Assembly (NCBI GenBank): GCA_016875225.1
Contig: VGRW01000008.1
Coordinates: 12,960-76,959 of the forward strand
From: Deltaproteobacteria bacterium
GTDB taxonomy: Bacteria > Myxococcota_A > UBA9160 > SZUA-336
Length of the DNA: 64,000 bases
Reading direction: 5' to 3'
Numbering within the stretch: position 1 is the stretch's first letter; each line of letters opens with the position of its first letter. The notes under the pieces were generated by a model, which ran no database searches, was not told where the DNA came from, and saw nothing but the letters and a program-made list of their open reading frames with translations. A program made the position numbers and the translations under genes. Below are positions 6,970-61,233 of the stretch, piece by piece.

Positions 6970-7601
6970 CCGATTCGGGCGAGCTCGATCCGCAGCGCCC
7001 CAACACGGAGCTCCTGCTTCGCGCCTACGCGAGCGGGATCTTTCCGATGGTCGATCCGCGCAAGCGCAGGATCGAGTACTTCAGCCCGGATCCGCGCGCC
7101 GTGATCCCGCTGGAGCGCTTCCACGTGCCGAGAAGCCTCGCGCGCGTGCGCGCGAAGCGGCCCTTCGAGATCCGCAGCGACACCGTCTTCGAGGGCGTGA
7201 TGCGCGCCTGCGCCGAGCCCCGCGCAGGGCGGACCGAGACCTGGCTCGACGAGCGGCTGATCGCCGCGTACGTCGAGCTGCACGCGCACGGATTCGCGCA
7301 CAGCGTCGAGGCGTTTCGCGAGGGACGGCTCGTCGGCGGGCTGTACGGCGTCCACATCGGCGCGGCGTTCTTCGGCGAGAGCATGTTCAGCCGGCTGGAG
7401 ATCGGCGGAACCGACGCCTCGAAGCTCTGCCTGGTGGAGCTGGTCGAGCGACTTCGCGCAGGCGGATTCGAGCTACTCGACACGCAGTTCTCGACGCCGC
7501 ACCTCGCGCGCTTCGGCTGCGTCGAGATTCCGCGCGAGCGCTACCTCGCGCTGCTCGAGATCGCGATCCGGCGCCGGGGAGAATGGTCGAGCGGCGGTTA
7601 G
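6966..7601 (+). CDS. aat: leucyl/phenylalanyl-tRNA--protein transferase
   Basis: LLLRAYASGIFPM…YFSPDPRAVIPLERFHVPRSL…WLDERLIAAYVELHAHGFAHSVE… is the typical Aat family. GTG start overlaps the znuB stop. The upstream part of ORF 6186..7601 is a shadow frame. Confidence 0.8.
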   Translation: MTDSGELDPQRPNTELLLRAYASGIFPMVDPRKRRIEYFSPDPRAVIPLERFHVPRSLARVRAKRPFEIRSDTVFEGVMRACAEPRAGRTETWLDERLIAAYVELHAHGFAHSVEAFREGRLVGGLYGVHIGAAFFGESMFSRLEIGGTDASKLCLVELVERLRAGGFELLDTQFSTPHLARFGCVEIPRERYLALLEIAIRRRGEWSSGG

Positions 7602-7611
7602 CTCGCCGCGC

Positions 7612-8823
7612 TCAGGCTCGCTCGGGATCGAAGGCGATCCGCATCTCCTTCGCGCCGTTCACGAAGTTCGAACGCAGTCGGCGCGGCGGCGAAACCAGGC
7701 GGGGGTTCCGGAGCCGCTTCAGGATCTCCTGGAAGACCACCACCAGCTCGAGCCGCGCCAGGTTCGCGCCCAGACAGAAGTGCTCGCCGATCCCGAACGC
7801 GAGGTGCGGGTTGTCGACGCGCCCGATGTCGAAGCGGTCCGGCTCGACGAAGACCTCTTCGTCGCGATTCGCCGCCGGGTACCACATCACGACCTTCTGT
7901 CCCTTCGCGATCCTGCGTCCGCGAAGCTCCGTGTCGCGGGTCGCCGTGCGCCGGAAGTAGTGCACCGCCGGATCGAAGCGCACGAACTCCTCGACCGCCT
8001 GCGGCACCAGCGCGGGGTTCGCGACCAGCCGCGCCAGCTGGTCGGGGTGGTCGAGAAGCGCCTTCATTCCATTGGTCGTCACGGTGCGCGTCGTCTCGCT
8101 TCCGGCGACCAGCAGCAACAGGAAGAAGGAGCAGTACTCGAGCTCGGAGAGCTTCTCGCCGTCGATCTCGTGGAAGAGCAGGGCCGTGGTCAGGTTGTCG
8201 GCCGGATCCTTGCGGTACCTCTCGGCGAGCTTCATCGCGAAGCCGAACATCTGAGCCGAAGCGTCGCGCGCGTCCGCCTCGCTGTTCTGGAACTCCGGAT
8301 CGTCGAAGCCGATCAGCTTGTTCGAGAGCTCGAAGATCAGCTTGCGGTCTTCCTGCGGCACGCCCATCAGCTCGCAGATGACCTGCAGCGGGAGCTCCGC
8401 GGCGAGCTCGCCGACGAACTCGCACTCTCCTTTGTGCGCGACGCCGTCGACGATGCGCCTGGCGAGTCCGCGCAGGTAGTCTTCCTGCTTCGCGACCATC
8501 TGCGGCGTGAACCCGCGCTGCACGATGCGCCGGAACTTCACGTGCTGCGGCGGATCCATGTTCAGCATGAGCAGGCGAATGCCCGCGAGCGACGTCTCGT
8601 CGCGGTCCTCGATGTTCGTGCCGCCGAGCCAGCTCGAGTAGAGCAGCGGATCGCGCGAGATGGTCTTCACGTCCTCGTACTTGGTCACGCACCAGAATCC
8701 GGGGCCGTTCCTCTCGGGATGCCAGTGCACGGGGTCGCGGGTGCGCAGCTCTTTGAGCCAGTGATGCGGCGTTCCAGCGACGAAGTGGTCCGGGTTGGCG
8801 AGGTCGATGTCCTCGAGATTCAT
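7612..8823 (-). CDS. cytochrome P450 monooxygenase
   Basis: EXXR (ETTR) and haem-binding loop FGIGEHFCLGANLAR. 404 aa from MNLEDIDLANPDHF. The N-terminal extension of ORF 7612..9411 is rejected. Confidence 0.9.
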   Translation of the reverse strand: MNLEDIDLANPDHFVAGTPHHWLKELRTRDPVHWHPERNGPGFWCVTKYEDVKTISRDPLLYSSWLGGTNIEDRDETSLAGIRLLMLNMDPPQHVKFRRIVQRGFTPQMVAKQEDYLRGLARRIVDGVAHKGECEFVGELAAELPLQVICELMGVPQEDRKLIFELSNKLIGFDDPEFQNSEADARDASAQMFGFAMKLAERYRKDPADNLTTALLFHEIDGEKLSELEYCSFFLLLLVAGSETTRTVTTNGMKALLDHPDQLARLVANPALVPQAVEEFVRFDPAVHYFRRTATRDTELRGRRIAKGQKVVMWYPAANRDEEVFVEPDRFDIGRVDNPHLAFGIGEHFCLGANLARLELVVVFQEILKRLRNPRLVSPPRRLRSNFVNGAKEMRIAFDPERA

Positions 8824-8831
8824 CTGCGGAT

Positions 8832-8845
8832 CAGAACACGTTCTA
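8832..8845. promoter_or_regulatory. KstR-type operator-like palindrome (CAGAACACGTTCTA) in the divergent cyp450/echA promoter
   Basis: Matches TnnAACnnGTTnnA at 13 of 14 defining positions. 9 nt upstream of the P450 start. Confidence 0.55.
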
Positions 8846-8876
8846 CCCGGGCTCGCAAGACGGTTGAGGGGCAGAT

Positions 8877-8890
8877 TGGAACGTGTTTCA
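8877..8890. promoter_or_regulatory. KstR-type operator-like palindrome (TGGAACGTGTTTCA)
   Basis: Second box in the same 75-bp intergenic region, 9 nt upstream of the enoyl-CoA hydratase ATG. Confidence 0.55.
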
Positions 8891-8898
8891 ATCGAGCC

Positions 8899-9696
8899 AT
8901 GAGCCCAGCCCACGCCCTGGTCGAGAAGGAAGGTCACGTTCTGGTCGTGACCATGAACCGCCCCGAGGCGAAGAACGCGCTGTCGCCGGACATGCTCTGG
9001 CGCATGTACGAGGCCTGGCGCCGGCTCGACGCCGACGCGGATCTGCGCTGCGCGATCCTGACCGGCGCGGGCGGAACGTTCTGCGCGGGCGCGGACCTGA
9101 AGACGATGGGCCGCGAGAAGCCCGACGAGGAGATGCAGAAGCGCATGAAGGAAGTGCCGGACCTGCACTGGCAGGCGCTGCTGCGGCACAACCGGCCGAT
9201 GAAGCCGATCATCGCGGCCGTCGAGGGCTACGCGCTCGCGGGTGGCACGGAGATCCTGCAGGGAACCGACATCCGCGTGGCCGGCGAGTCGGCGGTGTTC
9301 GGGGTGACCGAAGCGCGGCGCGGCCTGTTCCCGCTCGGCGGCTCGACGATCCGCCTGCGCCGGCAGATCCCGTACACGCTCGCGGCGGAGATCCTGCTCA
9401 CAGGGCGCCACGTGAGCGCGAGCGAGGCGAAGGAGTTCGGGCTGATTGGACGCGTGGTGCCGACCGGGTCGGCGCTCGACGAGGCGCGCAGGATCGCCGA
9501 GACGATCTGCGAGAACGGCCCGCTCTCGGTGCAGGCGATCGTGAAGGCGCTGCGCCTGTACGATCAGAGCATGAGCGAGTCGGAGGCGCTGGCGTTGGAG
9601 CTCGAGCTCGGCTGGCCGATCTTCGCCAGCGAGGACGCGAAGGAGGGCCCGCGCGCCTTCGCCGAGAAGCGCAAGCCGGTCTTCAAGGGGCGCTAG
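8899..9696 (+). CDS. enoyl-CoA hydratase/isomerase (crotonase family)
   Basis: …LVVTMNRPEAKNAL…FCAGADLK…AAVEGYALAGGTEIL… 265 aa. In frame with ORF 7780..9696, whose upstream part is shadow. Confidence 0.85.
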   Translation: MSPAHALVEKEGHVLVVTMNRPEAKNALSPDMLWRMYEAWRRLDADADLRCAILTGAGGTFCAGADLKTMGREKPDEEMQKRMKEVPDLHWQALLRHNRPMKPIIAAVEGYALAGGTEILQGTDIRVAGESAVFGVTEARRGLFPLGGSTIRLRRQIPYTLAAEILLTGRHVSASEAKEFGLIGRVVPTGSALDEARRIAETICENGPLSVQAIVKALRLYDQSMSESEALALELELGWPIFASEDAKEGPRAFAEKRKPVFKGR

Positions 9697-9861
9697 AAGC
9701 GGTCTCAGAGACCCCGACCCGAGCCCGGCGCGCGGATTCGGCCCGAGATCGAGGCGCGAGAGCGCAGGCGTATCTCGTCGATACGGCGAGCTCTCGCAAC
9801 GACGAGATCGGGGCGAAGACGCGTGCCCGGCGACGGGAGCGGGTTCTCGAGACCGCTTCTA
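9694..9861. repeat. 13-bp perfect terminal inverted repeats (TAGAAGCGGTCTC … GAGACCGCTTCTA) bracketing the convergent echA/ACAD intergenic region
   Basis: Left repeat 9694..9706 begins with the echA stop codon. Right repeat 9849..9861 ends with the complement of the ACAD stop codon. The arms are 142 bp apart, and the inner ends are themselves short palindromes (GGTCTCaGAGACC, TCTCGAGA). Confidence 0.5.
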
Positions 9862-10974
9862 GTCGGCGAGCGCGTCGCCGAGGCGCTCGAGGTGGCGCGC
9901 GGCGGAGCCGAGCGTGAGCTCGATCTGGCGCGTCCACAGATAGGAGCGGTGCAGCGGGTAGTCGTTGTCCATGCCGATCCCGCCGTGCAGGTGCTGCGCG
10001 GCGTAGGTCGCGTGGTTGCCGCCGTCGGCCGCCCAGATCTTCGCGACCGAGACCGCCGTCGCCGCAGACCGTCCCTGCGAGAGCAGGAACGCGGCCTGCT
10101 GCATCGTGAGCCGCATCGCCTCGAGCTGGATGTAGGCGTCGGCGGCGCGTTGGTGCACGGCCTGGAAGCTGCCGATCGGCCGGTCGAACTGCTTGCGCTC
10201 GCTGGTGTAGCTCGCCGTCATGCGCAGCGCGCGCTCGGCCACGCCGACCTGCAGCGCGCACAGGCCGGTGATCGCGCGCTCGGTGATCCACTCGATCATC
10301 TTCTTGCCGCGCGAGAACGTGCCGAGCACGTCCTGCGCCTTCACCCTGGCTCGCTGCAGGCGCAGCGTCGCGATCGGCTCGCGGTTGGTCGCCGTCTGCA
10401 TCTCGAGCTTCACGCCGGGGCCCTTCGGGTCGACCAGGAACAGACCCACGCGTCCGCCCCCGACGCTGGCCGGCACGAGGATCCGCGCGGCGAGCTTCGC
10501 GGCCGGCACGCAGACCTTCGTGCCCGAGAGCCTGAACGACGCGCCGTCGCGCGTCGCGCGCGTGGAGGGCTTCGTGGGATCGTCCGAGTCGGCCTCCTCG
10601 AACGCGCCGCTGAGCACGACCTGCCCCGCGATCACACCCGGAAGGAACGCGGCTTTCTGTGCGGCGGATCCGAACTCCGCGATCGGCAGCGCCCCGAGCG
10701 CGAGCGTGGCCCAGAACGGGATCGGAGCGACGGCGCGGCCGACCTCCTCCAGCAGGCAGCAGAGCTCGATCACGCCGAGCCCGCTGCCGCCGTAGGCCTC
10801 GGGAAGACACGCGCCGAGAAGATTCGCCTTCGCGAGCTCGCTCCAGAGCTCGGCGTCGTGTCCGCTTCCGCTCCGCTCGATCTCCCCGATGCGCTCGTGG
10901 GAAGCTCGGTCGCCGAGGATCTTCCGCGCGAGCTCGGAGAGGGCCTTCTGGTCGTCGCTGTAGGCGAAGTTCAT
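9859..10974 (-). CDS. acyl-CoA dehydrogenase family protein, probable non-catalytic partner subunit
   Basis: ACAD fold throughout. At the position of the catalytic base (the YEGTxE-like region) it reads GGIGMDNDYP, with no Glu. Immediately downstream of a canonical ACAD. Confidence 0.8.
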   Translation of the reverse strand: MNFAYSDDQKALSELARKILGDRASHERIGEIERSGSGHDAELWSELAKANLLGACLPEAYGGSGLGVIELCCLLEEVGRAVAPIPFWATLALGALPIAEFGSAAQKAAFLPGVIAGQVVLSGAFEEADSDDPTKPSTRATRDGASFRLSGTKVCVPAAKLAARILVPASVGGGRVGLFLVDPKGPGVKLEMQTATNREPIATLRLQRARVKAQDVLGTFSRGKKMIEWITERAITGLCALQVGVAERALRMTASYTSERKQFDRPIGSFQAVHQRAADAYIQLEAMRLTMQQAAFLLSQGRSAATAVSVAKIWAADGGNHATYAAQHLHGGIGMDNDYPLHRSYLWTRQIELTLGSAARHLERLGDALAD

Positions 10975-10981
10975 CTCTACA

Positions 10982-12160
10982 CTATGCCTTGTAGTGCGGC
11001 ATCTGCAGGCCGGCCATCGCGATGATGTCGCGTTGGACTTCGTTGGTACCGCCGCCGAACGTGAGGATCAGCGCCGAGCGGTACATTCGCTCGACGCGCC
11101 CCGCCAGGATCGCACCGGGCGAGCGGGCCTTGAGCTTTCCCGCGGCGCCGAAGATCTCCATCATCGCGCGGTACGCCTCGACGAAGAACTCCGACGCGTA
11201 GACCTTGACCGTCGAGGCCTCGGCCGGGTGCAGGCGCGAGTGGGTCAGCGTCCAGGCCTGCTTCCAGAGCATGAGCTTCAGCGCCTCGCCGCCCGCCTGA
11301 CACTTCGCCAGGTTGCGGCGCACGAAGGGCTGGTCGATCACGCGCCCGCCGTCGGCGAGCCGCGTCTTCCTCGCCCAGGCCCGGACCTCGTCCTGGAGCT
11401 TCTCGAACGGGCCGATCGGAAACAGCGAGACGCGCTCGTGGTTCAGCTGGTTCGTGATCAGGCCCCAGCCGTTGTTCTCGCCGCCGATCAGGTAGCGCGC
11501 CGGCACGCGCACGCCGTCGAAGAAGGTCGCGTTCGTGCGCACGTCGGCCATGGTCCAGATCGGCGTCAGCTTGAATCCAGGCGCGGTGGTCGGAACGATG
11601 AAGATCGAGATCCCGCGGTGCTTCTTCGAGGTCGGGTCGGTGCGCGCGGCGAGCCAGATGTAGTCGGCGAAATCCGCCAGGCTCGTGAAGGTCTTCTGCC
11701 CGTTGATCACCCACTCGTCGCCGTCGCGCACGGCGCTGGTCGAAAGCGACGCAAGGTCGGTTCCGGCCCCAGGCTCGGAGTAGCCGATCGCGAAGTGCAG
11801 GTCGCCGGCGAGGATTCGCGGCAGGATCTCCGCTTTCACTTCGGGACTGCCGTACGCCATCAGCGTCGGTCCGACCGTGCCGAGCGTGAGGAAGGGCAGG
11901 GGGAAGCCCGCGCGCTGCACCTCGTCCGCGAACAGGAACTGCTCGAGCGGCGTGCGGTCCTGGCCGCCGTATTCCTTGGGCCAGCCGATCCCCAGCCAGC
12001 CGTCGCGGCCCATCTTCGCGAGCGCCTTGCGGTATTCGGGGCCGCCGCCCTCTCCGCCCGCCGAGAGCTCCGCCACGAGCTGCTTCGTCATGAGCTTCGC
12101 GAAGTAGCCGCGAAGCTGGTCGCGCAGGAGCGCGAGTTCGGGCGAGAGGTCGATGTACAT
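10982..12160 (-). CDS. acyl-CoA dehydrogenase (catalytic subunit)
   Basis: ACAD N, M and C domains. C-terminal FGGGTNEVQR carries the catalytic Glu. Confidence 0.85.
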   Translation of the reverse strand: MYIDLSPELALLRDQLRGYFAKLMTKQLVAELSAGGEGGGPEYRKALAKMGRDGWLGIGWPKEYGGQDRTPLEQFLFADEVQRAGFPLPFLTLGTVGPTLMAYGSPEVKAEILPRILAGDLHFAIGYSEPGAGTDLASLSTSAVRDGDEWVINGQKTFTSLADFADYIWLAARTDPTSKKHRGISIFIVPTTAPGFKLTPIWTMADVRTNATFFDGVRVPARYLIGGENNGWGLITNQLNHERVSLFPIGPFEKLQDEVRAWARKTRLADGGRVIDQPFVRRNLAKCQAGGEALKLMLWKQAWTLTHSRLHPAEASTVKVYASEFFVEAYRAMMEIFGAAGKLKARSPGAILAGRVERMYRSALILTFGGGTNEVQRDIIAMAGLQMPHYKA

Positions 12161-12186
12161 GCGGGCTTCTCCTCGAGAAGACCCGC
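12161..12186 (-). promoter_or_regulatory. 5'-UTR hairpin sequestering the SD of the ACAD gene
   Basis: mRNA sequence GCGGGUCUUCUCGAGGAGAAGCCCGC-AUG. This gives a stem of 5+6 bp with a 1-nt bulge and a GAG loop. The SD GAGGAG is half inside the stem, and the hairpin ends exactly at the start codon. Confidence 0.45.
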
Positions 12187-12188
12187 AT

Positions 12189-12202
12189 TAGAACGGGTTC
12201 CA
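12189..12202. promoter_or_regulatory. KstR-type operator-like palindrome (TAGAACGGGTTCCA) upstream of the ACAD pair
   Basis: Fits TnnAACnnGTTnnA. Followed by CAATCGAGCC, which also follows the box at 8877. Confidence 0.55.
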
Positions 12203-12212
12203 ATCGAGCCGG

Positions 12213-13676
12213 TCAACCCGCCTGGAACACTCCGGCGTGCGGCTGCTCGAACGCGCGCGCGGCGAGCGCGTCGAGGATCACCCCTTCGCGCAGACCCCAG
12301 TCGCAGATCATCAGCCCCGACAGCGCCAGCCGCGCGAGCACGGCCGACATGATCACCGCTCCGGTCGGTAGCAGGTCCGCGCGCTTCTCGTCGATTCCAG
12401 GCAGCGCGAGGCGCTCGGCATGACTCGAGCGCGCGAGCCTGCGCGCGAGACCGTCGAAGTCCTCCGCGCTGACCAGCAGGCCGCGCAGATCCGCGCTCGG
12501 CGCGTCGTCGGGGACGCCGAGCAGGAGCCGTGCGAGCGCGCGCACGGTTCCCCCCGCCGCGATGCAGCGCACCGACCCGAGCGCGCGGATCCGGCCGGCG
12601 ATCGGATCGAGCGAATCCTCGACGCGCGCGCGCACGGCGCGCACCTCGGCGGCGGAGAGTGGATCCGAGCGCACCAGCTCGCCGTGCAGCCGCGTGACCC
12701 CGAGGCGAAGCGTCGTCTCGAAGCGCAGCCCGGACGCGTTGCCGACCGCGAGCTCGAGGCTGCCTCCGCCCAGATCGAGCCCCAGCGCGTTCTCGTCGCC
12801 CAGGCCGACGCGGCGCCGGAACGCCGAGAAGATCAGGCGTGCCTCTTCCTCGCCGGAGAGGGTGCGCACCTCGCTGCCGAGCGCGCGGGTGATACGCTCG
12901 GCGAGCTTGCGGCCGTTCTTCGCGTCGCGAATCGCCGACGTCGCCACCGCGACCAGCTCCTGCGCGCCCGCGCGGTCCGCGAGGCGCCGCAGCCTGCGCG
13001 CGCCGTCGACCGCGCGCTCGCAGAGCTCGTCGGAGAGCTTCGATTCCTGCGCGAGCGCGGCGCCGAGCCGGAGCATCTCGCGCTCGCGCGCGACGCGCAC
13101 GATGTGACCGTCTGCGGTCACGTCGGCGACCAGCAGCGTGAACGAGGTGCTGCCCAGATCCACGACGGCGATCCGCCGCCGGGCGTCGACGTCGGGCCGC
13201 GCGGCTCCGGCGCGGGGCGGCGGCAGGTACGACGCTCTCGCGCGCCCTCCCGCGCCGTCCTGCAGCAGCCAGGTGGAGCCCTTGGGGCAGCCCGCTCCGC
13301 CCTCCATCTCGAGCGCGCCGGGAACGAGCTTCTCGACCAGCGCGGGAATCAGATCGCCGTGGCACGCGAGCAGCGCCGTCTCGCCGCCGAGCGACCGCAC
13401 GAGCGAGAGCGCGCCGCTGGTGCTCGCTCCCTCCGCGATTCGCGCGTCGATCTCGACGCCGAGCCCGAACCGCGCGGCGATCGGCTCCGCGGTCTGCCGG
13501 CAGCGAAGCGCGGGGCTCGAGATCACGCGCGCGAGCGCGACGCCTTCGAACCGCTCGACCAGACCCAGCGCCTGGTCGTGACCCGCGGGCGAGAGCGGCC
13601 GCATGCCGTCGGCATTCTCCCAGCCGAGGCGACGCTGCGCCTTCGCGTGGCGAACCAGATAGATCTTCACTCCCAC
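12213..13676 (-). CDS. fusion protein: histidine-phosphatase (SixA-like) N-domain plus Ppx/GppA exopolyphosphatase domain
   Basis: N-terminus has IYLVRHAKA…(RHx motif) and ACHGDLI (second catalytic His). After about residue 165 comes IAVVDLGSTSFTLLVADV…, the Ppx/GppA actin-like fold. Same strand as ppk1, 47 bp downstream of it. Confidence 0.75.
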   Translation of the reverse strand: MGVKIYLVRHAKAQRRLGWENADGMRPLSPAGHDQALGLVERFEGVALARVISSPALRCRQTAEPIAARFGLGVEIDARIAEGASTSGALSLVRSLGGETALLACHGDLIPALVEKLVPGALEMEGGAGCPKGSTWLLQDGAGGRARASYLPPPRAGAARPDVDARRRIAVVDLGSTSFTLLVADVTADGHIVRVAREREMLRLGAALAQESKLSDELCERAVDGARRLRRLADRAGAQELVAVATSAIRDAKNGRKLAERITRALGSEVRTLSGEEEARLIFSAFRRRVGLGDENALGLDLGGGSLELAVGNASGLRFETTLRLGVTRLHGELVRSDPLSAAEVRAVRARVEDSLDPIAGRIRALGSVRCIAAGGTVRALARLLLGVPDDAPSADLRGLLVSAEDFDGLARRLARSSHAERLALPGIDEKRADLLPTGAVIMSAVLARLALSGLMICDWGLREGVILDALAARAFEQPHAGVFQAG

Positions 13677-13723: not shown

Positions 13724-15808
13724 CTATGGCGCGCGCGACCGGCCCTTATCGTCGGCCATCGCTCGCTGTCGCGCGAGGTCCTGGAAGCGATCGTGCGAGG
13801 TCGGCACCGCGGCCTGCGGGTCGCGCCGCCAGACCCCGTCGGAACCGAGCGACCAGGAGAGCGGGTTCGGCGCCAGGTTCACCGCGAGAATCTCCTCCAA
13901 CCTCGCTTGCAGCGTCGGGTCGTCGATCTGCACCAGCGTCTCGACGCGACGGTCGAGGTTCCTCGTCATCAGATCGGCGGAGCCGATGAAGTAGCGCGGC
14001 GTGCGATCGGGATGGCCGAAGCGCAGGATGCGCGAGTGCTCGAGGAAGCGCCCCAGCGTCGAGCGGACGCGAATGCGCTCGGAGAGACCGGCGATTCCCG
14101 GACGCAGGCAGCAGATGCTGCGCACGATCAGGTCGATCTCGGTTCCGGCTCGGGCCGCGGCGTACAGAGCGTCGATGATCCCGTCGTCGGACAGGTTGTT
14201 CACCTTGATCGCGATCCGGCCGTCCCCGGACTCCGCCTCGCGGCGGATCTCGTCGAGCAGTCGCGAGCGCAGGGTCGCGGGCGCGACCAGCAGGCGCCGG
14301 TAGCCGCTCGGCCGGGCGCAGCCCGTCAGGAAGTTGAAGACCTCGGAGATGTCGGCGCCGAGCTCCGGCCGTGCCGAGAGCAGGCCCACGTCCTCGTAGG
14401 TGTCGGCGGTGGTCGGGTTGTAGTTCCCGGTGCCGATGTGGCAGTAGCGCCGGATCGAACTGCCCTCGCGGCGCACGACCAGCGCGATCTTCGCGTGGGT
14501 CTTCAGCCCGACGATGCCGTAGACGACATGCACACCGGCCTGCTCGAGCCGCCGCGCCCACTCGATGTTCGAGCTCTCGTCGAAGCGCGCCTTCAGCTCG
14601 ATCAGCGCGACGACCTCTTTGCCGGTCTGCGCGGCGCGCATCAGCGCGCGCACGATCGGATTGTCGCGCCCCGAGGTCCGGTACAGCGTGTGCTTGATCG
14701 CGAGCACGTCCGGGTCGGTCGCGGCCTGCGTGAGGAACGCCTCGACCGAGCTTCGGAACGAGTCGTAGGGGTGGTGGACGAGCACGTCGGCTTCGCGGAT
14801 CACCGTGAACAGATCCGGTGCCGTGGTGCTGGGGACCAGCCGCGGCGGCGTCTGCGGCAGCCAGGCCGGATCCTTCAGGTCGGGGCGGTCGAGCGCGTAG
14901 AACGCCCAGAGACTGTTGAGCCCCAGCGGCCCGTCGAGCACGTAGACCTCGTCGTGCTCGAGCTCGAGCTCGGCCACGAGCAGGTCGCGCACGCGCGTCG
15001 ACATGCTCCGGTCGATCTCGAGCTGCACGGCGTCGTTCATGCGCAGCCGGCGCTGCAGGCCGGACTGGATCGCCTCGAGCAGGTCGTCCGCGTCGTCCTC
15101 GTCGAGCGCGAGCTCCGCGTCGAGCGTGAGGCGGAACGGATGATTCGAGACGATCTCCATGCCGGGGAAGAGCGCGTCGAGATGGGCCGCGATCAGCTGC
15201 TCGATCGGAAGGAAGCGCTCGCCGTCGGGCAGCGCGTGGAAGCGCGGCAGCAGCCCGGGAACCTTCACGCGCGCGAAGCGGCTGTCGCCGCTGCCCGGGT
15301 CGCGCACCACCACGGCCAGGTTCAGCGACAGGTTCGAGACGTACGGAAACGGGTGCGCTCGGTCGACGGCCTGCGGCGTGAGCACCGGCAGGATCTGCTC
15401 CTCGAAGACCGTCTGCAGCAGCTTGCGGTCGGTCGCGTCGAGCTCCGCCCACGCGGCCAGGCGGATCCGCTGCTCGGCGAGCGCGGGCAGGATCTCCTTG
15501 TGCAGAATTCCCTCCTGCACGCGCAGTTGCTCGAGCACCTGCAAGCGGATCTCGGCCAGCTGCTCGCGCGGGGTTCGCCCGTCCGATGCGGGCTTGGTCA
15601 CGCCGGCGTCGACCTGCGCGCGGAGCCCGGCCACCCGAACCTGGAAGAACTCGTCGAGGTTGGAGCCGACGATCGCGACGTACTTCACGCGCTCGAGAAG
15701 TCTCTGCCGTGGGTCCTCGGCCAGCGCGAGCACGCGCCAGTTCCAGTCGAGCCACGAGAGCTCGCGATTGAGAAATCGGACTGCTGTCGAGCCCTCGGCG
15801 GCATCCAT
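13724..15808 (-). CDS. ppk: polyphosphate kinase 1
   Basis: RFLNRELSWLDWNWRVL… N-terminus, PLD-like HKD region and C-terminal domains typical of PPK1. Start placed at MDAAEG (15808) by alignment to PPK1 N-termini. The ORF extends to 15865. Confidence 0.85.
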   Translation of the reverse strand: MDAAEGSTAVRFLNRELSWLDWNWRVLALAEDPRQRLLERVKYVAIVGSNLDEFFQVRVAGLRAQVDAGVTKPASDGRTPREQLAEIRLQVLEQLRVQEGILHKEILPALAEQRIRLAAWAELDATDRKLLQTVFEEQILPVLTPQAVDRAHPFPYVSNLSLNLAVVVRDPGSGDSRFARVKVPGLLPRFHALPDGERFLPIEQLIAAHLDALFPGMEIVSNHPFRLTLDAELALDEDDADDLLEAIQSGLQRRLRMNDAVQLEIDRSMSTRVRDLLVAELELEHDEVYVLDGPLGLNSLWAFYALDRPDLKDPAWLPQTPPRLVPSTTAPDLFTVIREADVLVHHPYDSFRSSVEAFLTQAATDPDVLAIKHTLYRTSGRDNPIVRALMRAAQTGKEVVALIELKARFDESSNIEWARRLEQAGVHVVYGIVGLKTHAKIALVVRREGSSIRRYCHIGTGNYNPTTADTYEDVGLLSARPELGADISEVFNFLTGCARPSGYRRLLVAPATLRSRLLDEIRREAESGDGRIAIKVNNLSDDGIIDALYAAARAGTEIDLIVRSICCLRPGIAGLSERIRVRSTLGRFLEHSRILRFGHPDRTPRYFIGSADLMTRNLDRRVETLVQIDDPTLQARLEEILAVNLAPNPLSWSLGSDGVWRRDPQAAVPTSHDRFQDLARQRAMADDKGRSRAP

Positions 15809-18106: not shown

Positions 18107-18123
18107 GCGCTTGTCGCCCGGAA

Positions 18124-18137
18124 TGGAACGTGTTCCA
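18124..18137. promoter_or_regulatory. KstR-type operator-like perfect palindrome (TGGAACGTGTTCCA)
   Basis: Perfect 14-bp palindrome in the 127-bp gap upstream of the secreted-protein/LLM/acyl-CoA-synthetase operon. Confidence 0.6.
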
Positions 18138-18233
18138 ATCCGCCTCGAGAAGGCGCGGGTGTCGCACGGGAAGGGCGGAGTCGAGGAGGGCGCCGGGTCG
18201 GTTCGCAGAGCCGCTGCGAGAGGGAGCTTCTCC

Positions 18234-18878
18234 ATGAGGGTTTCTCTCTCGCTGCGTAGCGCGCGGATCGCATCGGGGATGGTGGCGATCTCCCTGGCTC
18301 TGGCGGCACCCGCGTCTTCCGAATCGAGCGGTCCGCAGCCGGGCTCGACGGGCGTGCCGGCGGGCGCGGGCTTCGAGGCGGAGCCGACCTGCATCTCGTG
18401 CCAGGGCGGCTTTCCGCTGAACTCCGACGGCCGCGACCGGCTCACACTCGCGGGAGTTCCTGCGCGCTACGTCCCCGGCCAGCGCTACCGGCTCGTTCTC
18501 GACCTGCGCCACCCCGACGAGGAGCGCAGACGCTGGGGCTTCCAGCTGACGGCCGTGAGCGCGACGAAGCTCACGGGCGCGGGGTCGTTCGCGGTGACCG
18601 ACGCTGCGAACACGCAGCGGATCGCGGGTACGTTCGGAGATCGCCAGTACATGAGCCACTCCTACTTCGGGACCGGCGTCGGCGACGCGGGCGGACGCAG
18701 CTGGAGCTTCGACTGGATCGCGCCCGCGCGCGAGGTCGGACGCGTCGCGTTCTACGGCGTCGGCAGCGCCGCCGATGCCGACGGCTCGAAGGAAGGCGAT
18801 CGCATCTACGGGCCCGCGCCGAGGCCGCTGGCGACGAGCGATCCGGGCTCGAGCGCGGAGAAGGAGCAACGCCGTTGA
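18234..18878 (+). CDS. secreted hypothetical protein
   Basis: Signal peptide MRVSLSLRSARIASGMVAISLALAAPASS, then EPTCISCQGG… beta-rich domain. Upstream KstR-like box at 18124. The 5' part of ORF 18018..18878 is rejected. Confidence 0.5.
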   Translation: MRVSLSLRSARIASGMVAISLALAAPASSESSGPQPGSTGVPAGAGFEAEPTCISCQGGFPLNSDGRDRLTLAGVPARYVPGQRYRLVLDLRHPDEERRRWGFQLTAVSATKLTGAGSFAVTDAANTQRIAGTFGDRQYMSHSYFGTGVGDAGGRSWSFDWIAPAREVGRVAFYGVGSAADADGSKEGDRIYGPAPRPLATSDPGSSAEKEQRR

Positions 18879-19747
18879 AGTTCTGGCAGTCCGCATCGTT
18901 CAGTGAGCCGGAGCAGCTGATCGAGATCGCGAAGCTCGCGGAGCAGGTCGGCTTCGACGGACTCCTCTTGTCCGATCATCTCTTCTTTCCCGGCAGGCTC
19001 GAATCGAAGTACCCCTACTCGCCCGACGGAGACCCGGGGTTCACGCCCGAGACGCCGTGGCCCGAGCCGTTCGCCGCGATCGCCGCGATGGCGGCGGTCA
19101 CGCGTCGGCTGCGCTTCGCGACGCTGGTCTACATCCTGCCGCTGCGAAATCCGCTCGAAGTCGCGAAGTCGACCGCCACGCTCGACCTGCTCTCCGACGG
19201 GCGCTTCGTCCTCGGCGTCGGCGCGGGCTGGATGAAGGAGGAGTTCGACCAGCTCGGCGTCGACTTCCGCACCCGCGGCGCGCGCTTCGACGAGTCGATC
19301 GACGTGCTGCGCACGCTCTGGTCCGGCGGGATGGTCGAGCACCACGGGCGCTTCTTCGACTTCGCGCGCCTGCAGATGAGCCCGAAGCCGAAGCGGAGCG
19401 TGCCGATCTACGTCGGCGGCGCGAGCGACGCGGCGCTGCGCCGCACCGCGCAGCGCGGCGACGGCTGGCTCGGCAACGGCTCCGACCCCGAAGAGGCTGC
19501 GCGGATCCTCGCCGAGCTCGCGCGGCTGCGCCGCGAGGCCGGCCGCGAGAAGCTGCCGTTCGAGGCCGTCGTGCCGCTCACCACGCCGCCCGACCCCGAC
19601 GTGCTTCGCCGGCTCGAGGACCAGGGTGCGCACGGCACGGTGAGCTACCCGTTCACGTTCGCACTCGGGCCGAATTCGACGCTCGAGCAGAAACGCAGCT
19701 ACCTCGAAGGCTTCGCTGCGAACGTGATCCGCAAGGCGCGGGGCTGA
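18875..19747 (+). CDS. LLM-class flavin/F420-dependent oxidoreductase (luciferase-like)
   Basis: …GFDGLLLSDHLFFP…LGVGAGW… TIM-barrel LLM motifs. TTG start 8 nt after AAGGAG. Confidence 0.75.
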   Translation: MKFWQSASFSEPEQLIEIAKLAEQVGFDGLLLSDHLFFPGRLESKYPYSPDGDPGFTPETPWPEPFAAIAAMAAVTRRLRFATLVYILPLRNPLEVAKSTATLDLLSDGRFVLGVGAGWMKEEFDQLGVDFRTRGARFDESIDVLRTLWSGGMVEHHGRFFDFARLQMSPKPKRSVPIYVGGASDAALRRTAQRGDGWLGNGSDPEEAARILAELARLRREAGREKLPFEAVVPLTTPPDPDVLRRLEDQGAHGTVSYPFTFALGPNSTLEQKRSYLEGFAANVIRKARG

Positions 19748-21420
19748 TGGCGGATCTCGCGGCGATCGAGGCGCGCCTCACCGGCCCGGGCGGCCCGTTC
19801 GAGATCGCGGTCGAAGACGTGCTCGGCGCGCGAATGCCGGTGTTCAAGAACCGGCTGCGCTCGCTGCGCAGTCTGCTCGAGCTCTCGTCGGCGCAGGGAG
19901 AGAAGGAGTATCTCGTCCATCGCGACCGGCGCATCTCGTACGACGAGCACCTGCGTCTGGTCGCGAAGCTGGCGGGCGTGCTGCGCGACCGCTTCGGAGT
20001 CCGGAAGGGGGATCGCGTCGCGATCCTGGCCGAGAACGGCCCCGAGTGGATCCTCTCGTTCTGGGCCGCGCAGGCGCTCGGCGCGGTCGCCGTGGGCCTG
20101 AACGGCTGGTGGGTCGGCGACGAGATCCGCTACGGCGTTCGCGACTGCGATCCGAAGCTCTTGATCGCGGATCGCCGCAGGCTCGAGCGAGTGTCCGCGT
20201 CCGAGCTCCGCGTGCCGGTGCTCGAGATCGAGAGCGACTTCGAGCGGCTCCTCGCGCGAGCCGACGACGCTCCGCTCGCCGAGGTCGAGATCTGCGAGGA
20301 CGATCCCGCGGCGATCCTCTACACGAGCGGAACCACCGGCCGGCCGAAGGGCGCGACGAACACGCAGCGCAACATCCTCGCGCTGCTCGGCCTGCAGTTC
20401 TTCCACGGCGCGCGGATGATGCTGGCCGCGGCCGCCGACGGGCGGGCTCCCACCGGTCCCGCACGGCCGCCCTGCGCGCTCGTGACGACGCCGCTCTTCC
20501 ACGTCTCGGGTCTGTACACCGGCGCGATCGTGATGCTCGCCAGCGGCGCGAAGACGGTCTGGCGCTCGGGACGCTTCGATCCCGTGGACGTGATGCGACT
20601 GATCGAGCGCGAGCGGGTCACGTCCTGGGGGCCGATGGGAACGATGGTCCATCGCGTCGTCCATCATCCGGACGTCGCCAAGTACGATCTCTCGAGCGTC
20701 GCGAGCATCGGCTCCGGCGGCGCGCCGATGAGCCCGGAGCTGCAGCAGAAGATCCGAGCCGTGTTTCCGACCGCGCAGGCGAGCCTCGGGCTCGGCTACG
20801 GCCTGACGGAATGCACGGCGCTGGCGACGCTCGCGTTCGGCGAGGAGCTCGCGCGCCACCCGACCACGGCGGGACGACCCTTGCCGACCGTGCAGCTCGA
20901 GATCCGCGGCGCCGACGGGCGCGCGCTCGCCGAGGGCGAGACCGGCGAGATCTGCGTGCGAAGCCCGCTCGTGATGGCCGGATACTGGCGCAACCCGCAG
21001 GCCAGCGCGGAATCGATCGCGGCGGACCGCTGGCTTCGCACCGGCGACGTCGGGCGGATCGAGCAGGGCCGGCTCTACGTCGATTCGCGCGCGCGCGACC
21101 TGATCCTGCGCGGAGCCGAGAACATCTACCCGGTCGAGATCGAGCAGCGTCTCGAAGCGCACCCCGACGTGCTCGAGGCGGCGGTGGTCGGCGTCGACCA
21201 CGAGGAGCTCGGCCAGGAAGTGAAGGCGATCGTCGTGCCCCGTCCGGGCGCCCGGGTGAGCGCGGCGCAGCTCGCGGCCTGGGTGGCCGAGGCGCTGGCG
21301 GCCTTCAAGGTCCCCGCGCACTGGCAGCTGCGCGCGGAGCCGCTGCCGCGAAACGCGACCGGAAAGGTGCTGAAGAACGTCCTCGTCGGAGCAGCCGGAA
21401 ACGCCTTCGTCGCCGAGTAG
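19747..21420 (+). CDS. acyl-CoA synthetase (AMP-dependent ligase, FadD-like)
   Basis: AMP-binding motif YTSGTTGRPKGA. C-terminal …GKVLK. Start ATG overlaps the upstream TGA. Confidence 0.85.
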   Translation: MADLAAIEARLTGPGGPFEIAVEDVLGARMPVFKNRLRSLRSLLELSSAQGEKEYLVHRDRRISYDEHLRLVAKLAGVLRDRFGVRKGDRVAILAENGPEWILSFWAAQALGAVAVGLNGWWVGDEIRYGVRDCDPKLLIADRRRLERVSASELRVPVLEIESDFERLLARADDAPLAEVEICEDDPAAILYTSGTTGRPKGATNTQRNILALLGLQFFHGARMMLAAAADGRAPTGPARPPCALVTTPLFHVSGLYTGAIVMLASGAKTVWRSGRFDPVDVMRLIERERVTSWGPMGTMVHRVVHHPDVAKYDLSSVASIGSGGAPMSPELQQKIRAVFPTAQASLGLGYGLTECTALATLAFGEELARHPTTAGRPLPTVQLEIRGADGRALAEGETGEICVRSPLVMAGYWRNPQASAESIAADRWLRTGDVGRIEQGRLYVDSRARDLILRGAENIYPVEIEQRLEAHPDVLEAAVVGVDHEELGQEVKAIVVPRPGARVSAAQLAAWVAEALAAFKVPAHWQLRAEPLPRNATGKVLKNVLVGAAGNAFVAE

Positions 21421-21468
21421 TACACTCGAGGTCGTCTGGCCGAAGCGAGACACCGGGAGGACGACGAG

Positions 21469-22626
21469 ATGGCGAAGCTCGAGATCCAGGGCCGTTGTGA
21501 CCCGCGCTTCAAGCGCGTGCGCGAGCTCTTCGAGGCGGGGTTCGAGAGCGGCGCCGAGCTCGGCGCCGGTCTGAACGTCGTCGTCGACGGGCGCGAGCTG
21601 ATCGACCTCTGGGGCGGATTCGCGGACCGGGAGCGAACGCGTCCCTGGCGACGGGACACGCTCGCGAACGTGTACTCGACGACGAAGGGCATCACCGCGA
21701 TCGCGGCGCACCAGCTCGTCGAGCGCGGCGAGCTGGAGCTCGACGCGCCGGTCGCGCGCTACTGGCCCGAGTTCGCGCAGAAGGGCAAGGCCTCGATTCC
21801 GGTGCGCATGCTCTTGAACCATCGGGCCGGACTCGCGGCCGTGACCCGGCCGCTCGCGCCCGCGGATCTCTTCGACTGGGCGACCATGACGCGCGCGCTC
21901 GAAGAGCAGGAGCCGTGGTGGAAGCCGGGAGCCGACCACGGCTATCACGCGCTCACCTACGGCTGGCTCGTCGGCGAGCTGATCCGGCGCGTGAGCGGCA
22001 TGAGCGTCGGGCGCTACGTGCGCGAGCACGTCGCCGCGCCGCTCGGCGCGGAGTTCTGGATCGGGCTTCCCGAAGAGCTCGACGCGCGCACCGCGGAGCT
22101 GCACCAGGGTCCGATCTCGACCGACGGGCCGAACCTGATGCAGCGGATGGCGGCCGAGCCGAACGGCGTGCTCGCGAAGGCCTTCGGCAATCCGCCGCTC
22201 CTGCTGATGAGCCCGAACACCCGAGCCTGGCGTGCGGCGGAGCTGCCCGCCGCGAACGGACACACGACCGCTCCGGCGCTCGCGCGCATCTACGCCGCGC
22301 TCGCCAGCGGAGGCGAGCTCGACGGCGTGCGCATTCTTCGGCGCGACACGATCGAGCGCGCTCGCGAAGAGGAGTCGTACGGCCCGGACCGCGTGCTCGC
22401 GCTCGTCTCCCGCTTCGGTCTCGGCTTCATGCTTCCGCCGGAAAACGAGCCGCTCGGTCCCAACCCGCGCACGTTCGGGCACGGCGGGGCGGGCGGATCG
22501 CTCGGCCTCGCGGATCCGGAGACGAAGGTCGGCTTCGGCTACGTGATGAACCTGATGCACACCGGCGCCTGGCTCGCGGACCCGCGGCCGCGCGCCCTGC
22601 TCGACGCGCTCTACGAAGGGCTCTGA
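21469..22626 (+). CDS. serine hydrolase, beta-lactamase/esterase (class C-like) family
   Basis: SxxK motif YSTTKG, …YHALTYGWLV…, C-terminal HGGAGGS (KTG-box variant). Confidence 0.8.
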   Translation: MAKLEIQGRCDPRFKRVRELFEAGFESGAELGAGLNVVVDGRELIDLWGGFADRERTRPWRRDTLANVYSTTKGITAIAAHQLVERGELELDAPVARYWPEFAQKGKASIPVRMLLNHRAGLAAVTRPLAPADLFDWATMTRALEEQEPWWKPGADHGYHALTYGWLVGELIRRVSGMSVGRYVREHVAAPLGAEFWIGLPEELDARTAELHQGPISTDGPNLMQRMAAEPNGVLAKAFGNPPLLLMSPNTRAWRAAELPAANGHTTAPALARIYAALASGGELDGVRILRRDTIERAREEESYGPDRVLALVSRFGLGFMLPPENEPLGPNPRTFGHGGAGGSLGLADPETKVGFGYVMNLMHTGAWLADPRPRALLDALYEGL

Positions 22627-23442: not shown

Positions 23443-23907
23443 ATGAGCCAGTGGATCCCGATCGGTCGCTTCGCCCAGGTCTCGGGCTTCACGATCCGAG
23501 CGCTTCGCCACTACGAGAGCCTCGGGCTGCTCGTGCCCGCGCGCGTCGATCCCGGCAGCGGCTACCGCTTCTATCGGCCCGAGCAGCTTCCCGACGCGCT
23601 GCGCGTGCGGCTGCTGCGCGCGCTCGAGATGCCGCTGCCCGACGTCGTGGCGGTGATGCGCGATCCGGACGGCCCGGCCGCACTCGAGGCGCTTCGCGCG
23701 CACCGAGTGCGCGTCGCCTCGCGGCTCGGCGAACTCGAGCAGCAGCTCGCGCGACTCGACGAGTGGCTGCACGGCGCGCTGCAGGAGCTCGACGCCGATC
23801 AGCCCGCGCTCGACGAGGGCACCGCCGCGCCGGCCGAGGACGACCGACCCGCGGAGCCGCTGGAGCGCGCCTTCCTGGGGCTCTTCGGTCCGCCCGGAAA
23901 ACCCTGA
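23443..23907 (+). CDS. MerR-family transcriptional regulator
   Basis: N-terminal MerR HTH (IGRFAQVSGFTIRALRHYESLGLLVPARVDPGSGYRFY) plus a coiled-coil dimerisation segment. Confidence 0.75.
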   Translation: MSQWIPIGRFAQVSGFTIRALRHYESLGLLVPARVDPGSGYRFYRPEQLPDALRVRLLRALEMPLPDVVAVMRDPDGPAALEALRAHRVRVASRLGELEQQLARLDEWLHGALQELDADQPALDEGTAAPAEDDRPAEPLERAFLGLFGPPGKP

Positions 23908-26028: not shown

Positions 26029-26355
26029 AGCAAGGCCATGAGGCTCGACCGAAGTCCGTTGGCGTTCGTGGCGATCGTCGGAGTTCTGCTGATCGCAGGA
26101 CCCGCGCTCGCAGACGACGTCCCTTCCCCGAAGCGGGATCGCGCGCAGCGCCAGGAGTTCTGCAAGCAGAATCCGCAGAAGTGCGAGGAGCAGCGCGCGC
26201 GGATGAAGCAGCGCCGGGACGAGTTCAGGGCGAAGTGCGAAGCCGATCCCGCCTGGTGCGAGCAGAAGAAGAAGAAGAAGAAGCGCCGCGAGCGCTTCCA
26301 CGAGCGGCACGGAACGGGGCCGGCTAGCGAAGGGGCGCCGCAACCTCCCGAATGA
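26029..26355 (+). CDS. small secreted Lys/Arg-rich protein with repeated Cys motifs
   Basis: Signal peptide LAFVAIVGVLLIAGPALA. Two CxxxP(x)xCE-like motifs (CKQNPQKCEE / CEADPAWCEQ). K6 run encoded by (AAG)6. 3' end overlaps the convergent LLM gene by about 30 nt, so the exact extent is uncertain. Confidence 0.4.
   Translation, partial: SKAMRLDRSPLAFVAIVGVLLIAGPALADDVPSPKRDRAQRQEFCKQNPQKCEEQRARMKQRRDEFRAKCEADPAWCEQKKKKKKRRERFHERHGTGPASEGAPQPPE
26266..26283 (+). repeat. (AAG)6 trinucleotide tract
   Basis: Six perfect AAG units in a genome of about 70% GC. In frame, encoding K6 in the small secreted protein. Confidence 0.7.
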
Positions 26356-27226
26356 ACCGGTCCAGCGTCGCGAGCTTCCGATCGCGAGGGCCGAGCGTGA
26401 AGTCGGGCACGATCAGCTCGTCCACGCCGGCCTCGCGATACTCGCGGACGATGTCTCGCACCTCGTCGACGTTGCCGATGATCGAGGGCCGGTCGATCGG
26501 CCGGCTGCGCAGCTTCTCGGCGAGATCGCGGTCGTCGGTCAGGAACAGCAGAGCCACCGCGGAGCGCTGGATCGCGCGCGTCGGCCGGCCGAGCTCGGCG
26601 CAGTAGCCGTCCAGGATCGCCATCTTGTGGCGCAGTCTCGCCACGTCGCCCCAGACGTTCCACTCGTCGGCGAAGCGCGCCGCGATCCGCAGCGTGACCT
26701 TCTCGCCGCCGCCTCCGATCAAGAGCGGCAGCGGTCTCTGCACCGGCTTCGGCTCCAGAACCGCGTTCGACAGCGCGTAGTGCGCGCCGCGAAACGTCGT
26801 CGTCTCGTTGGCGAAGAGCGACTTGATCAGCTCGCACGCCTCCGCCAGTCGCTCGAGCCGCTGCTTCACGGTGTAGAACGGAATTCCGTACTGGCGGTGC
26901 TCGTTCTCCTGCCAGCCTGCACCCAGGCCGAGCACGAAGCGCCCGCCGCAGATCTGATCCAGCGTCGCGGCCATCTTCGCGAGCACGGCCGGATGGCGGT
27001 AGGTGTTTCCGGTCACGAGCGGGCCGAGTCGGAGCCGCGGCACCGAGACGGCGAGCGCGGCCAGCGTCGTCCAGCACTCCGGCCAGGGAACCCGCGTGTT
27101 CGCACCATCGGGCATGAAGTGGTCGGCGCAGTAGATCCCGTCCCAGCCGGTCGACTCCGCATGCCGCGCGATCTCGAGCACGTCGGCGAAGCTCTGCATC
27201 GGCGCGGGCCAGACGCTGAAGCGCAA
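26324..27226 (-). CDS. LLM-class F420/flavin-dependent oxidoreductase
   Basis: …GWDGIYCADHF…LGLGAGW… luciferase-like monooxygenase motifs. 300 aa. Confidence 0.8.
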   Translation of the reverse strand: MRFSVWPAPMQSFADVLEIARHAESTGWDGIYCADHFMPDGANTRVPWPECWTTLAALAVSVPRLRLGPLVTGNTYRHPAVLAKMAATLDQICGGRFVLGLGAGWQENEHRQYGIPFYTVKQRLERLAEACELIKSLFANETTTFRGAHYALSNAVLEPKPVQRPLPLLIGGGGEKVTLRIAARFADEWNVWGDVARLRHKMAILDGYCAELGRPTRAIQRSAVALLFLTDDRDLAEKLRSRPIDRPSIIGNVDEVRDIVREYREAGVDELIVPDFTLGPRDRKLATLDRFIREVAAPLR

Positions 27227-47908: not shown

Positions 47909-47922
47909 GGTATTCGCGCCTC

Positions 47923-50614: not shown

Positions 50615-50616
50615 GG

Positions 50617-51078: not shown

Positions 51079-51088
51079 CCCTGCGGAT

Positions 51089-51116: not shown

Positions 51117-51167
51117 CGCACGCAGGCCCCGGGTGACGGTAAGATGCGGGACCACAAGGAGTTCCCG

Positions 51168-52175: not shown

Positions 52176-52182
52176 ACGCGGC

Positions 52183-61175: not shown

Positions 61176-61233
61176 GAAGCTCCCCTTCGAGACGTTGCCG
61201 ACGGTCGGTCCAGGCATCTTCGGGCTCTCCTAT

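Follow-up and report, generated by a model that had tools for sequence, protein, structure and literature searches.

The 64,000 bp stretch of Deltaproteobacteria bacterium contig VGRW01000008.1 that was analysed here (assembly GCA_016875225.1; the whole stretch is called the window below) carries five 14 bp palindromes that match the operators of the Mycobacterium tuberculosis (Mtb) repressor KstR, and the genes behind them are homologues of the targets of that repressor. Aerobic cholesterol-type catabolism and its control by KstR have been described for Actinobacteria, and a KstR-type regulon in Myxococcota is a new phylum and a new cell-envelope type for this known system. We think it likely that a KstR-family repressor encoded in trans shuts off a sterol side-chain regulon by covering five or six promoters, and that a sterol-derived acyl-CoA relieves this block. 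The five palindromes, with their scores on an Mtb-trained weight matrix (see below), are:

8832-8845: box 1, CAGAACACGTTCTA, 8 nt 5' of the cyp125-like ATG (minus strand), 21.3 bits
8877-8890: box 2, TGGAACGTGTTTCA, 8 nt 5' of the echA19-like ATG (plus strand), 22.2 bits
12189-12202: box 3, TAGAACGGGTTCCA, 28 nt 5' of the chsE4-like ATG and 10 nt past the ppx stop codon, 20.4 bits
18124-18137: box 4, TGGAACGTGTTCCA, a perfect palindrome 96 nt 5' of g16, 23.7 bits
51089-51102: box 5, TAGAACACGTTCCA, 10 nt 5' of the g50 ATG (minus strand) and 65 nt 5' of the g51 ATG (plus strand), 25.4 bits

Palindromes and the predicted promoters around them

The weight matrix has as its training set solely the 16 sites that Kendall et al. 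2007 (PMC1995591, Table 3) list for KstR in M. tuberculosis, a set chosen because circularity was to be avoided. These training sites score 18.9-27.0 bits on their own matrix, and in the whole window exactly five positions, the boxes, fall in that range (20.4-25.4 bits, box 5 being the highest); the runner-up position has 8.8 bits, about 12 bits less, and 200 Markov simulations give a null expectation of 0.005 such sites per window. Exact matches to the literal pattern TnnAACnnGTTnnA number four in the window against 0.03 expected, and box 1, with a C at its position 1, has a single mismatch to it. All five boxes fall between genes, in the ~8% of the window that is intergenic, and the remaining ~50 genes are without any such element. 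The initial annotation of this DNA had reported all five as fits to the KstR consensus. They are real, at the sequences it gave, and the Mtb-only matrix selects every one of them as a 14 bp palindrome that scores like bound sites, with the correction that the consensus is matched exactly by four and with one mismatch by the box at 8832. It had also counted three control regions, where four are present (8824-8898, 12161-12212, 18107-18233 and 51079-51167), and had placed the finding at 7612-12212, an interval that contains three of the boxes and leaves two outside. No KstR2 motif was found in the window with one mismatch allowed. LexA-type boxes (GAAC-N4-GTTC) differ in spacing from the boxes here, and the GGAAC promoters of ECF sigma factors do not fit their palindromic form. 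A degenerate box-like sequence, AGAAACGTGTCCAC (51104-51117), abuts box 5 on its g51 side and shares bases with the -35-like TGGACA in front of g50; its Mtb matrix score is low, and it is a candidate weak second operator for g51.

The boxes are seen in eight related Myxococcota metagenome-assembled genomes (MAGs), namely at loci L012 to L017 and, in part, at L019 and L022. L012-L017 have box 1 in the form TAGAACGTGTTCTA at the corresponding position, and in the same six loci box 2 is kept 8-10 nt from the ATG of the echA orthologue. In L012-L014 and L017, sites of at least 22 bits are spaced 8-10 nt from the start codon of echA, 28-31 nt from that of chsE4 and either 8 or 23-24 nt from that of cyp125, and L015 and L016 retain both cyp/echA sites (20.5-27.0 bits). 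Counterparts of box 3 are found 28-31 nt upstream of the orthologue of the chsE4-like gene g11 in L012, L013, L014, L017 and L022; the last of these, in which the echA and cyp genes are frameshifted, also has a single box left in its cyp/echA region and a further site in front of its g16 orthologue. A counterpart of box 4 upstream of g16 is present in the metagenome locus L150 as well, L019 has one site, 31 nt before cyp125, and the more distant L018 has no site.

The boxes lie close to predicted promoters. In the divergent cyp125/echA19 region the predicted promoter elements are:

8858-8853, minus strand: -35-like TTGCGA, 17 nt from a -10-like TCTGAT (8835-8830) that overlaps box 1
8864-8869, plus strand: -35-like TTGAGG, 17 nt from a -10-like TTCAAT (8887-8892) that overlaps box 2

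The two -35-like hexamers stand back to back at 8853-8869, in a stretch that is kept across relatives (alignment A1). At all five boxes a TTGACA-like hexamer with 4-5 of the 6 positions (TTGCGA, TTGAGG, TTGACC, TTGTCG and TGGACA for boxes 1 to 5) is found 17-18 nt upstream of a TYYRAT hexamer (TCTGAT, TTCAAT, TCTAAT, TCCAAT and TCTAAT, respectively), the latter being built from the proximal arm of the box and its flank; the chance of this geometry at five of five boxes is ~6e-8 in a calculation made post hoc. The KstR motif in M. tuberculosis partly overlaps the -10 region (PMC1995591), and the arrangement here, in which the box overlaps the predicted -10-like hexamer, agrees with it. In cyp125, echA19 and g50 the ATG lies 6-8 nt past the -10-like hexamer and has no Shine-Dalgarno sequence (8821-8835, 8887-8901 and 51076-51092), which suggests that these three mRNAs are leaderless; in L015-L017 a leader containing GGAGG is inserted exactly between the -10-like hexamer and the ATG (alignment A1). 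In the predicted chsE4 promoter, the -35-like hexamer and the stop codon of ppx overlap.

It is exceedingly improbable, and already disfavoured by these data, that the palindromes match by chance or are simple promoter elements that serve no dedicated regulator. Promoter function could explain part of their conservation, given the overlap with the -10-like hexamers, but both arms are kept across species, including the arm distal to the hexamer, the four exact matches and five matrix sites far exceed the 0.03 and 0.005 expected, and the ~50 other window genes do without such an element.

We propose instead that a KstR-family TetR repressor, which would be encoded outside the window, uses the five palindromes as its operators. 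A dimer bound to such an operator would block RNA polymerase, because the operator sits between the -35-like and -10-like hexamers and overlaps the latter. The promoters so blocked would be those of cyp125, echA19, chsE4-chsE5, the operon of g16 with its LLM oxidoreductase, steroid-CoA ligase and esterase genes, and the DUF35-DUF35-ltp4-ltp3-fadD operon; the divergent operon with the Rv3520c-type LLM and MMPL genes would probably be blocked too, control by box 5 being less certain for the g51 strand than for g50. If the analogy with KstR holds, release of the repressor by a sterol-derived acyl-CoA would turn on side-chain oxidation and beta-oxidation of a sterol (or a sterol-like isoprenoid lipid). 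The identity of the regulator, repression as its mode of action, the inducer and the substrate are what we infer.

Genes behind the boxes

Genes were called by frame-specific GC content and checked against Pfam, NCBIfam and PDB sequences. Those next to boxes 1 to 3 are:

7612-8823, minus strand: g08, CYP125-family P450 of the steroid C26-monooxygenase type (Pfam p450)
8899-9696, plus strand: g09, EchA19-like enoyl-CoA hydratase (NCBIfam PRK07799)
9859-10974, minus strand: g10, ChsE5 (FadE27)-like acyl-CoA dehydrogenase beta subunit (PDB matches)
10982-12160, minus strand: g11, ChsE4 (FadE26)-like acyl-CoA dehydrogenase alpha subunit (PDB matches)

The g08 protein matches CYP125MRCA (PDB 8vxi) with 493 bits and Mtb CYP125 with 313 bits, and the methyl-branched lipid hydroxylase CYP124 comes near the latter with 296 bits. 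The g09 protein passes the PRK07799 equivalog model (406 bits, cut-off 316) and is just below the cut-off of the EchA19 model (376 bits, cut-off 400). The best PDB matches of g11 are 4x28_A (465 bits) and 6wy8_B (410 bits), and those of g10 are 6wy8_A (the Thermomonospora homologue Tcur3481, 302 bits) and 4x28_D (195 bits); the middle domain of g10 is degenerate, its Acyl-CoA_dh_M match being under the Pfam cut-off. The g11 and g10 genes are adjacent and in the same direction. Judged by sequence similarity alone, both a CYP125/CYP142-type C26 monooxygenase and an alpha2beta2 ChsE4-ChsE5 dehydrogenase are encoded here. On the other side of box 3, ppx (12213-13670) is a histidine-phosphatase domain fused to Ppx/GppA, and its neighbour (13724-15808) reads as ppk1 by eye from its translation.

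Box 4 precedes a single operon:

18234-22626, plus strand: four-gene operon g16-g17-g18-g19, in which start and stop codons overlap or abut
18234-18878, plus strand: g16, secreted choice-of-anchor V protein (sole match NF041895, 68 bits)
18875-19747, plus strand: g17, TIGR03619 LLM oxidoreductase (NCBIfam)
19747-21420, plus strand: g18, CasG/FadD19-like steroid-CoA ligase (NF052580)
21469-22626, plus strand: g19, LipL-like beta-lactamase-fold esterase (domain scans)

The match of g18 to the steroid-24-oyl-CoA synthetase model NF052580 is 731 bits, below the cut-off of 750. The box with the highest symmetry is the one in front of the secreted choice-of-anchor V gene g16.

Box 5 lies between two divergent units:

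45897-51078, minus strand: six-gene operon, in order g50 (DUF35), g49 (DUF35), g48, g47, g46 and g45 (Pfam/NCBIfam)
within it: g48, Ltp4-like (PRK07937 passed), and g47, Ltp3-like (PRK08313 passed)
also within it: g46, acyl-CoA synthetase (FadD), and g45, SnoaL-like
51168-58814, plus strand: g51-led operon with genes for g51, an EthD-like protein, DUF3047, GNAT, an MMPL/HAE3 RND transporter and an SDR
51168-52175, plus strand: g51, Rv3520c-family LLM oxidoreductase (TIGR03559, 456 bits, cut-off 335)
54982-57990, plus strand: MMPL/HAE3-type RND transporter of 1002 aa (weak PDB matches to MmpL3 and the hopanoid transporter HpnN)
58881-59666: a second EchA, downstream of the g51-led operon

The gene order of the g50 to g45 unit recurs in the metagenomic or genomic loci L258, L257, L244 and L251, and in the PDB g47 and g48 match generic SCP2-thiolases only. 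DUF3047, GNAT and RND transporter genes occupy 52875-57990, inside the operon that is headed by the Rv3520c-type gene; the RND protein is a candidate lipid or sterol transporter in the place of Mce4. Three LLM proteins of the window (18875-19747, 26324-27226 and 51168-52175) pass the cut-offs of TIGR03619, TIGR03560 and TIGR03559, respectively, which NCBIfam labels F420-dependent.

M. tuberculosis has KstR sites positive in electrophoretic mobility shift assays at Rv3545c (cyp125), Rv3503c/Rv3504 (fadE26), Rv3515c/Rv3516 (fadD19/echA19) and Rv3520c/Rv3521, and the regulon there includes ltp3 and ltp4 (PMC1995591). CYP125, ChsE4/5, the EchA19-like and CasG/FadD19-like proteins, the Rv3520c family and Ltp3/Ltp4 with DUF35 all correspond to entries of Table 3 in that work, and the divergent layout at box 5 is that of the Rv3520c/Rv3521 site. 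Because the targets parallel the Mtb KstR-site genes one by one, the match is gene by gene and goes beyond a general lipid theme, and the view of the initial annotation that the downstream genes mirror the actinobacterial KstR regulon is upheld in CYP125, ChsE4/ChsE5, the EchA19-like protein, the steroid-CoA ligase, Rv3520c and Ltp3/Ltp4.

The substrate could nevertheless be other than a sterol: the regulon might serve the beta-oxidation of general lipids or branched-chain fatty acids, with the CYP125- and ChsE-like enzymes acting on methyl-branched or isoprenoid lipids. Pfam scans of nearly all called genes found no kstD, kshA/kshAB, hsaA-D or mce4 in the window, and neither ring-opening genes nor a KstR2 regulon, as a complete 9,10-seco pathway would have, are present there; the rest of the genome may encode them. 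The Mtb KstR regulon holds general lipid genes too (PMC1995591), the scores of CYP124 and Mtb CYP125 on g08 are close, and the thiolase-like g47 and g48 have generic PDB matches, all of which would suit such a substrate. We regard it as unlikely, since the best matches are consistently steroid-specific (CYP125MRCA 493, ChsE4 465, Tcur3481 302, steroid-24-oyl-CoA synthetase 731 and EchA19 376 bits), and it is not exclusive of control by a KstR-family repressor.

The search for the regulator

The initial annotation had found no TetR gene in the window, and this is confirmed for the 64 kb by the Pfam scans and by phmmer (TetR, QacR, AcrR and KstR seeds) and a helix-turn-helix (HTH) regular expression run on six-frame open reading frames (ORFs) of at least 100 aa. 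The regulators that are present in the window are:

92-1000: LysR
23443-23907: MerR
61151-63946, minus strand: AAA_16 protein

A local LysR or MerR is unlikely to be the regulator because neither gene has a box nearby. The third is a 931-aa ORF with an N-terminal AAA_16 domain (STAND or LAL-type ATPase) that overlaps the weak gene call g60; no HTH domain was detected in it and no box lies near it.

Outside the window, the Mtb KstR protein query, whose sequence matched PDB 5aqc over its full length, gave matches dominated by mycobacterial orthologues. A search of representatives clustered at 50% gave 150 KstR-like clusters; in the 30 that were inspected the named members are Mycobacterium, Rhodococcus, Marmoricola or Streptomyces, and the seven contexts inspected are kstR-fadE34 or kstR-ltp clusters. 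These contigs were rejected as members of the window's lineage, their tetranucleotide correlations with it being r <=0.88 as against 0.89-0.96 within the lineage. One KstR-like protein, P0188, is an orphan; the proteins nearest to it are KstR of the Nocardioides type.

When metagenomes were scanned with the 18-mer ATTRGAACACGTTCYAAT, 62 of the 80 loci among the matches listed were on high-GC contigs, a strong enrichment. The site adjoins a true mycobacterial kstR in L149 and L187, and only L150 (1.5 kb) is, among the matches listed, assignable to the window's lineage by gene identity. At about 25 of these 80 loci (L121-L200) the site is directly upstream of an LLM gene 29-39% identical to g17, a pairing reminiscent of Rv0940c and Rv0953c, which have KstR sites in Mtb (PMC1995591), and L122, L155, L178 and L183 share another operon behind AAATTAGAACGTGTTCTAATTT.

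KstR-like TetRs with TetR_N and TetR_C_20 domains stand beside fadE34-like genes in L247 and L248, which have two boxes each, and in L253, which has one. In L244 and L251 such KstR-like TetRs are found beside DUF35-DUF35-ltp4-ltp3 clusters that are 58-66% identical to those of the window and have KstR boxes. On tetranucleotide signature, all five of these contigs fall outside the window's lineage. The closest case is L258, where a KstR-like TetR (again TetR_N plus TetR_C_20) is immediately upstream of an orthologous Ltp operon whose proteins are 72, 62, 75, 82 and 71% identical to g50-g46, in the same order; its recognition helix, VALGTLYKYF, is identical to the VAVGTLYRYF of KstR at 8 of 10 positions. 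At L257 (GCA_947259215.1, CAMYLJ010000026.1; Ltp3 79% identical) the orthologous DUF35-ltp4-ltp3-fadD-cyp operon follows an unrelated TetR with PsrA as its best match (53 bits), a perfect 16 bp palindrome, AAACGAACGTTCGTTT, lies 7 nt before the ATG of this TetR (7300-7346), and there are no KstR boxes; the locus looks like a replacement of regulator and operator at one operon. The Ltp operon is habitually under a TetR, which is swappable. The KstR-like type would be the one that fits the window's boxes, and the predicted TetR of L258, from a more distant relative, is the best lead to the regulator.

Several points weigh against control by a KstR-family repressor of sterol genes. No KstR-like gene was found in the window, in its 4 kb left extension L006 or in nine related Myxococcota loci, which reach up to 10 kb either side of cyp125. 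The L258 TetR has KstR (NF033703) as its best NCBIfam match, but its score of 118 bits is far below the cut-off of 280 and its identity to Mtb KstR is 30%; no KstR box occurs in the 13.9 kb of L258, where the TetR's own promoter is beyond the contig end. The regulators of the Ltp operon are exchangeable, because L257 has an unrelated TetR and a different palindrome. A strict sigma-70 promoter scan calls no promoter, because the -10-like hexamers are without the canonical A at position 2, and for that reason the promoters remain predicted ones. Finally, because the window is without ring-cleavage genes, the term sterol rests on the homology of CYP125, ChsE4/5, EchA19 and CasG.

The boxes might, then, be operators of a protein that is not a KstR orthologue, a member of another TetR subfamily or of another family that has converged on the palindrome or taken it over. 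This would account for the lack of a KstR-like gene in the lineage (window, L006 and the nine loci), it has a precedent in the PsrA-like TetR and AAACGAACGTTCGTTT of L257, and the nearest linked KstR-like protein, in L258, is far under the KstR equivalog cut-off. We consider it distinctly unlikely: the match to KstR sites spans 14-18 bp and passes the Mtb-only matrix, the sites accompany orthologues of KstR targets in divergent arrangements like those of M. tuberculosis, and the L258 recognition helix is so similar to that of KstR. A KstR-family repressor acting from elsewhere in the genome is the reading we prefer.

Host lineage and relation to known systems

The nine MAGs of the GTDB genome collection that have a g08 counterpart (68-86% identical) are mostly titled Myxococcota, Myxococcales or Deltaproteobacteria, one being titled "bacterium" only; the next relatives of g08 are in Acidimicrobiales (42-48%) and in Solirubrobacterales and Sphingomonadales (~39-40%). 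Orthologues of Ltp3 that are 78-95% identical form at least 120 clusters, and among the matches listed all names that bear a phylum are Myxococcota. Window genes recur on JGI freshwater metagenome contigs and in Logan assemblies of public runs. The contig encodes OmpA/PKD, TruD, Aat, ZnuABC and multihaem cytochromes, with a PEP-CTERM protein just outside the window. A non-actinobacterial host, which the initial annotation had argued from genes of this kind, is thus supported by the titles of the relatives as well as by OmpA, TruD, Aat and the multihaem cytochromes. We take the host to be a Gram-negative member of Myxococcota, so far uncultured, that lives in lakes.

The window is 71% G+C; the regulon segments (0.704) are close to the rest of the window (0.714), and their tetranucleotide correlation with it (r = 0.92) is similar to that of a control split (0.94). 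In a conserved synteny, the segments alternate with the genes ppk, ppx, truD and aat. Recent transfer and chimeric assembly are ruled out by the GC content, the tetranucleotide match and the conserved synteny: the contig is not chimeric and the regulon not a recent insertion, because the composition is native and the synteny includes housekeeping genes. Between the regulon segments, a cluster at 41780-44786 holds genes for two multihaem c-type cytochromes and a membrane protein of the cytochrome b561 type, with no box linked to them.

A broader proposal, to which we give somewhat less than an even chance, is that the whole regulon, sterol side-chain enzymes together with the KstR-type operator code, is common to Actinobacteria and widespread uncultured Myxococcota, and that in the latter it is stably integrated and refitted to a diderm cell. 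Stable integration would follow from the native composition, the synteny with housekeeping genes and the conservation across at least 8 species; the refit would consist of the secreted choice-of-anchor protein, the MMPL/HAE3 RND transporter replacing Mce4, and the F420-family LLM enzymes.

CYP125 has been described as dispersed within Actinobacteria. Cholesterol-pathway orthologues occur in nearly all steroid-degrading Actinobacteria (PMC4810484). The same comparative survey finds steroid pathways only in Actinobacteria and Proteobacteria and mentions neither Myxococcales nor Deltaproteobacteria. A full-text literature search for KstR or CYP125 together with Myxococc* gave nothing relevant, and we have found no report of a KstR regulon or of CYP125, both known in Actinobacteria, in Myxococcota. 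If the broader proposal is right, these Myxococcota, members of a phylum better known for sterol making and microbial predation, would be unrecognised sterol degraders, and cis-regulatory elements would have survived transfer between phyla. With a conserved KstR-type regulon in this common environmental lineage, more lake and soil bacteria would count as likely sterol degraders. It would also be a clean case of a repressor, its operators and its targets moving or persisting together across phyla, and the operators would be directly testable, since M. tuberculosis KstR should bind them.

Among known systems, the acyl-CoA-responsive TetRs FadR (Thermus, Bacillus) and PsrA (Pseudomonas, Vibrio) act as dimers on palindromic promoter operators and are released by acyl-CoA. 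Their regulatory logic is the same as that proposed here and their operators are different; the window shows neither a site nor a gene of the PsrA or FadR type. The clusters next to the KstR-like TetRs of L244, L251 and L258, proteins which are below the NF033703 cut-off, are orthologous to that of the window (58-82%) and have the same gene order. They differ in that their regulator gene is beside the cluster, where the window has none, and their tetranucleotide signatures do not place them in its lineage.

The KstR (Rv3574) regulon of M. tuberculosis and M. smegmatis (PMC1995591) differs from the one described here in its host, an actinobacterium there and an uncultured Myxococcota lineage here, and in its kstR-fadE34 unit, which was not found in the window or the related loci. 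The window is also without mce4 and ring-degradation genes, and has the MMPL/HAE3 RND transporter and the secreted choice-of-anchor V protein instead. The two regulons have in common the 14 bp palindrome, which here scores within the Mtb range; an operator upstream of and overlapping the -10 region (at predicted promoters in our case); a divergent region that holds two boxes (Rv3570c/Rv3571 in M. tuberculosis); and orthologous targets, namely cyp125, fadE26-27, echA19, a fadD19-like ligase, and Rv3520c divergent from Rv3521-ltp4-ltp3.

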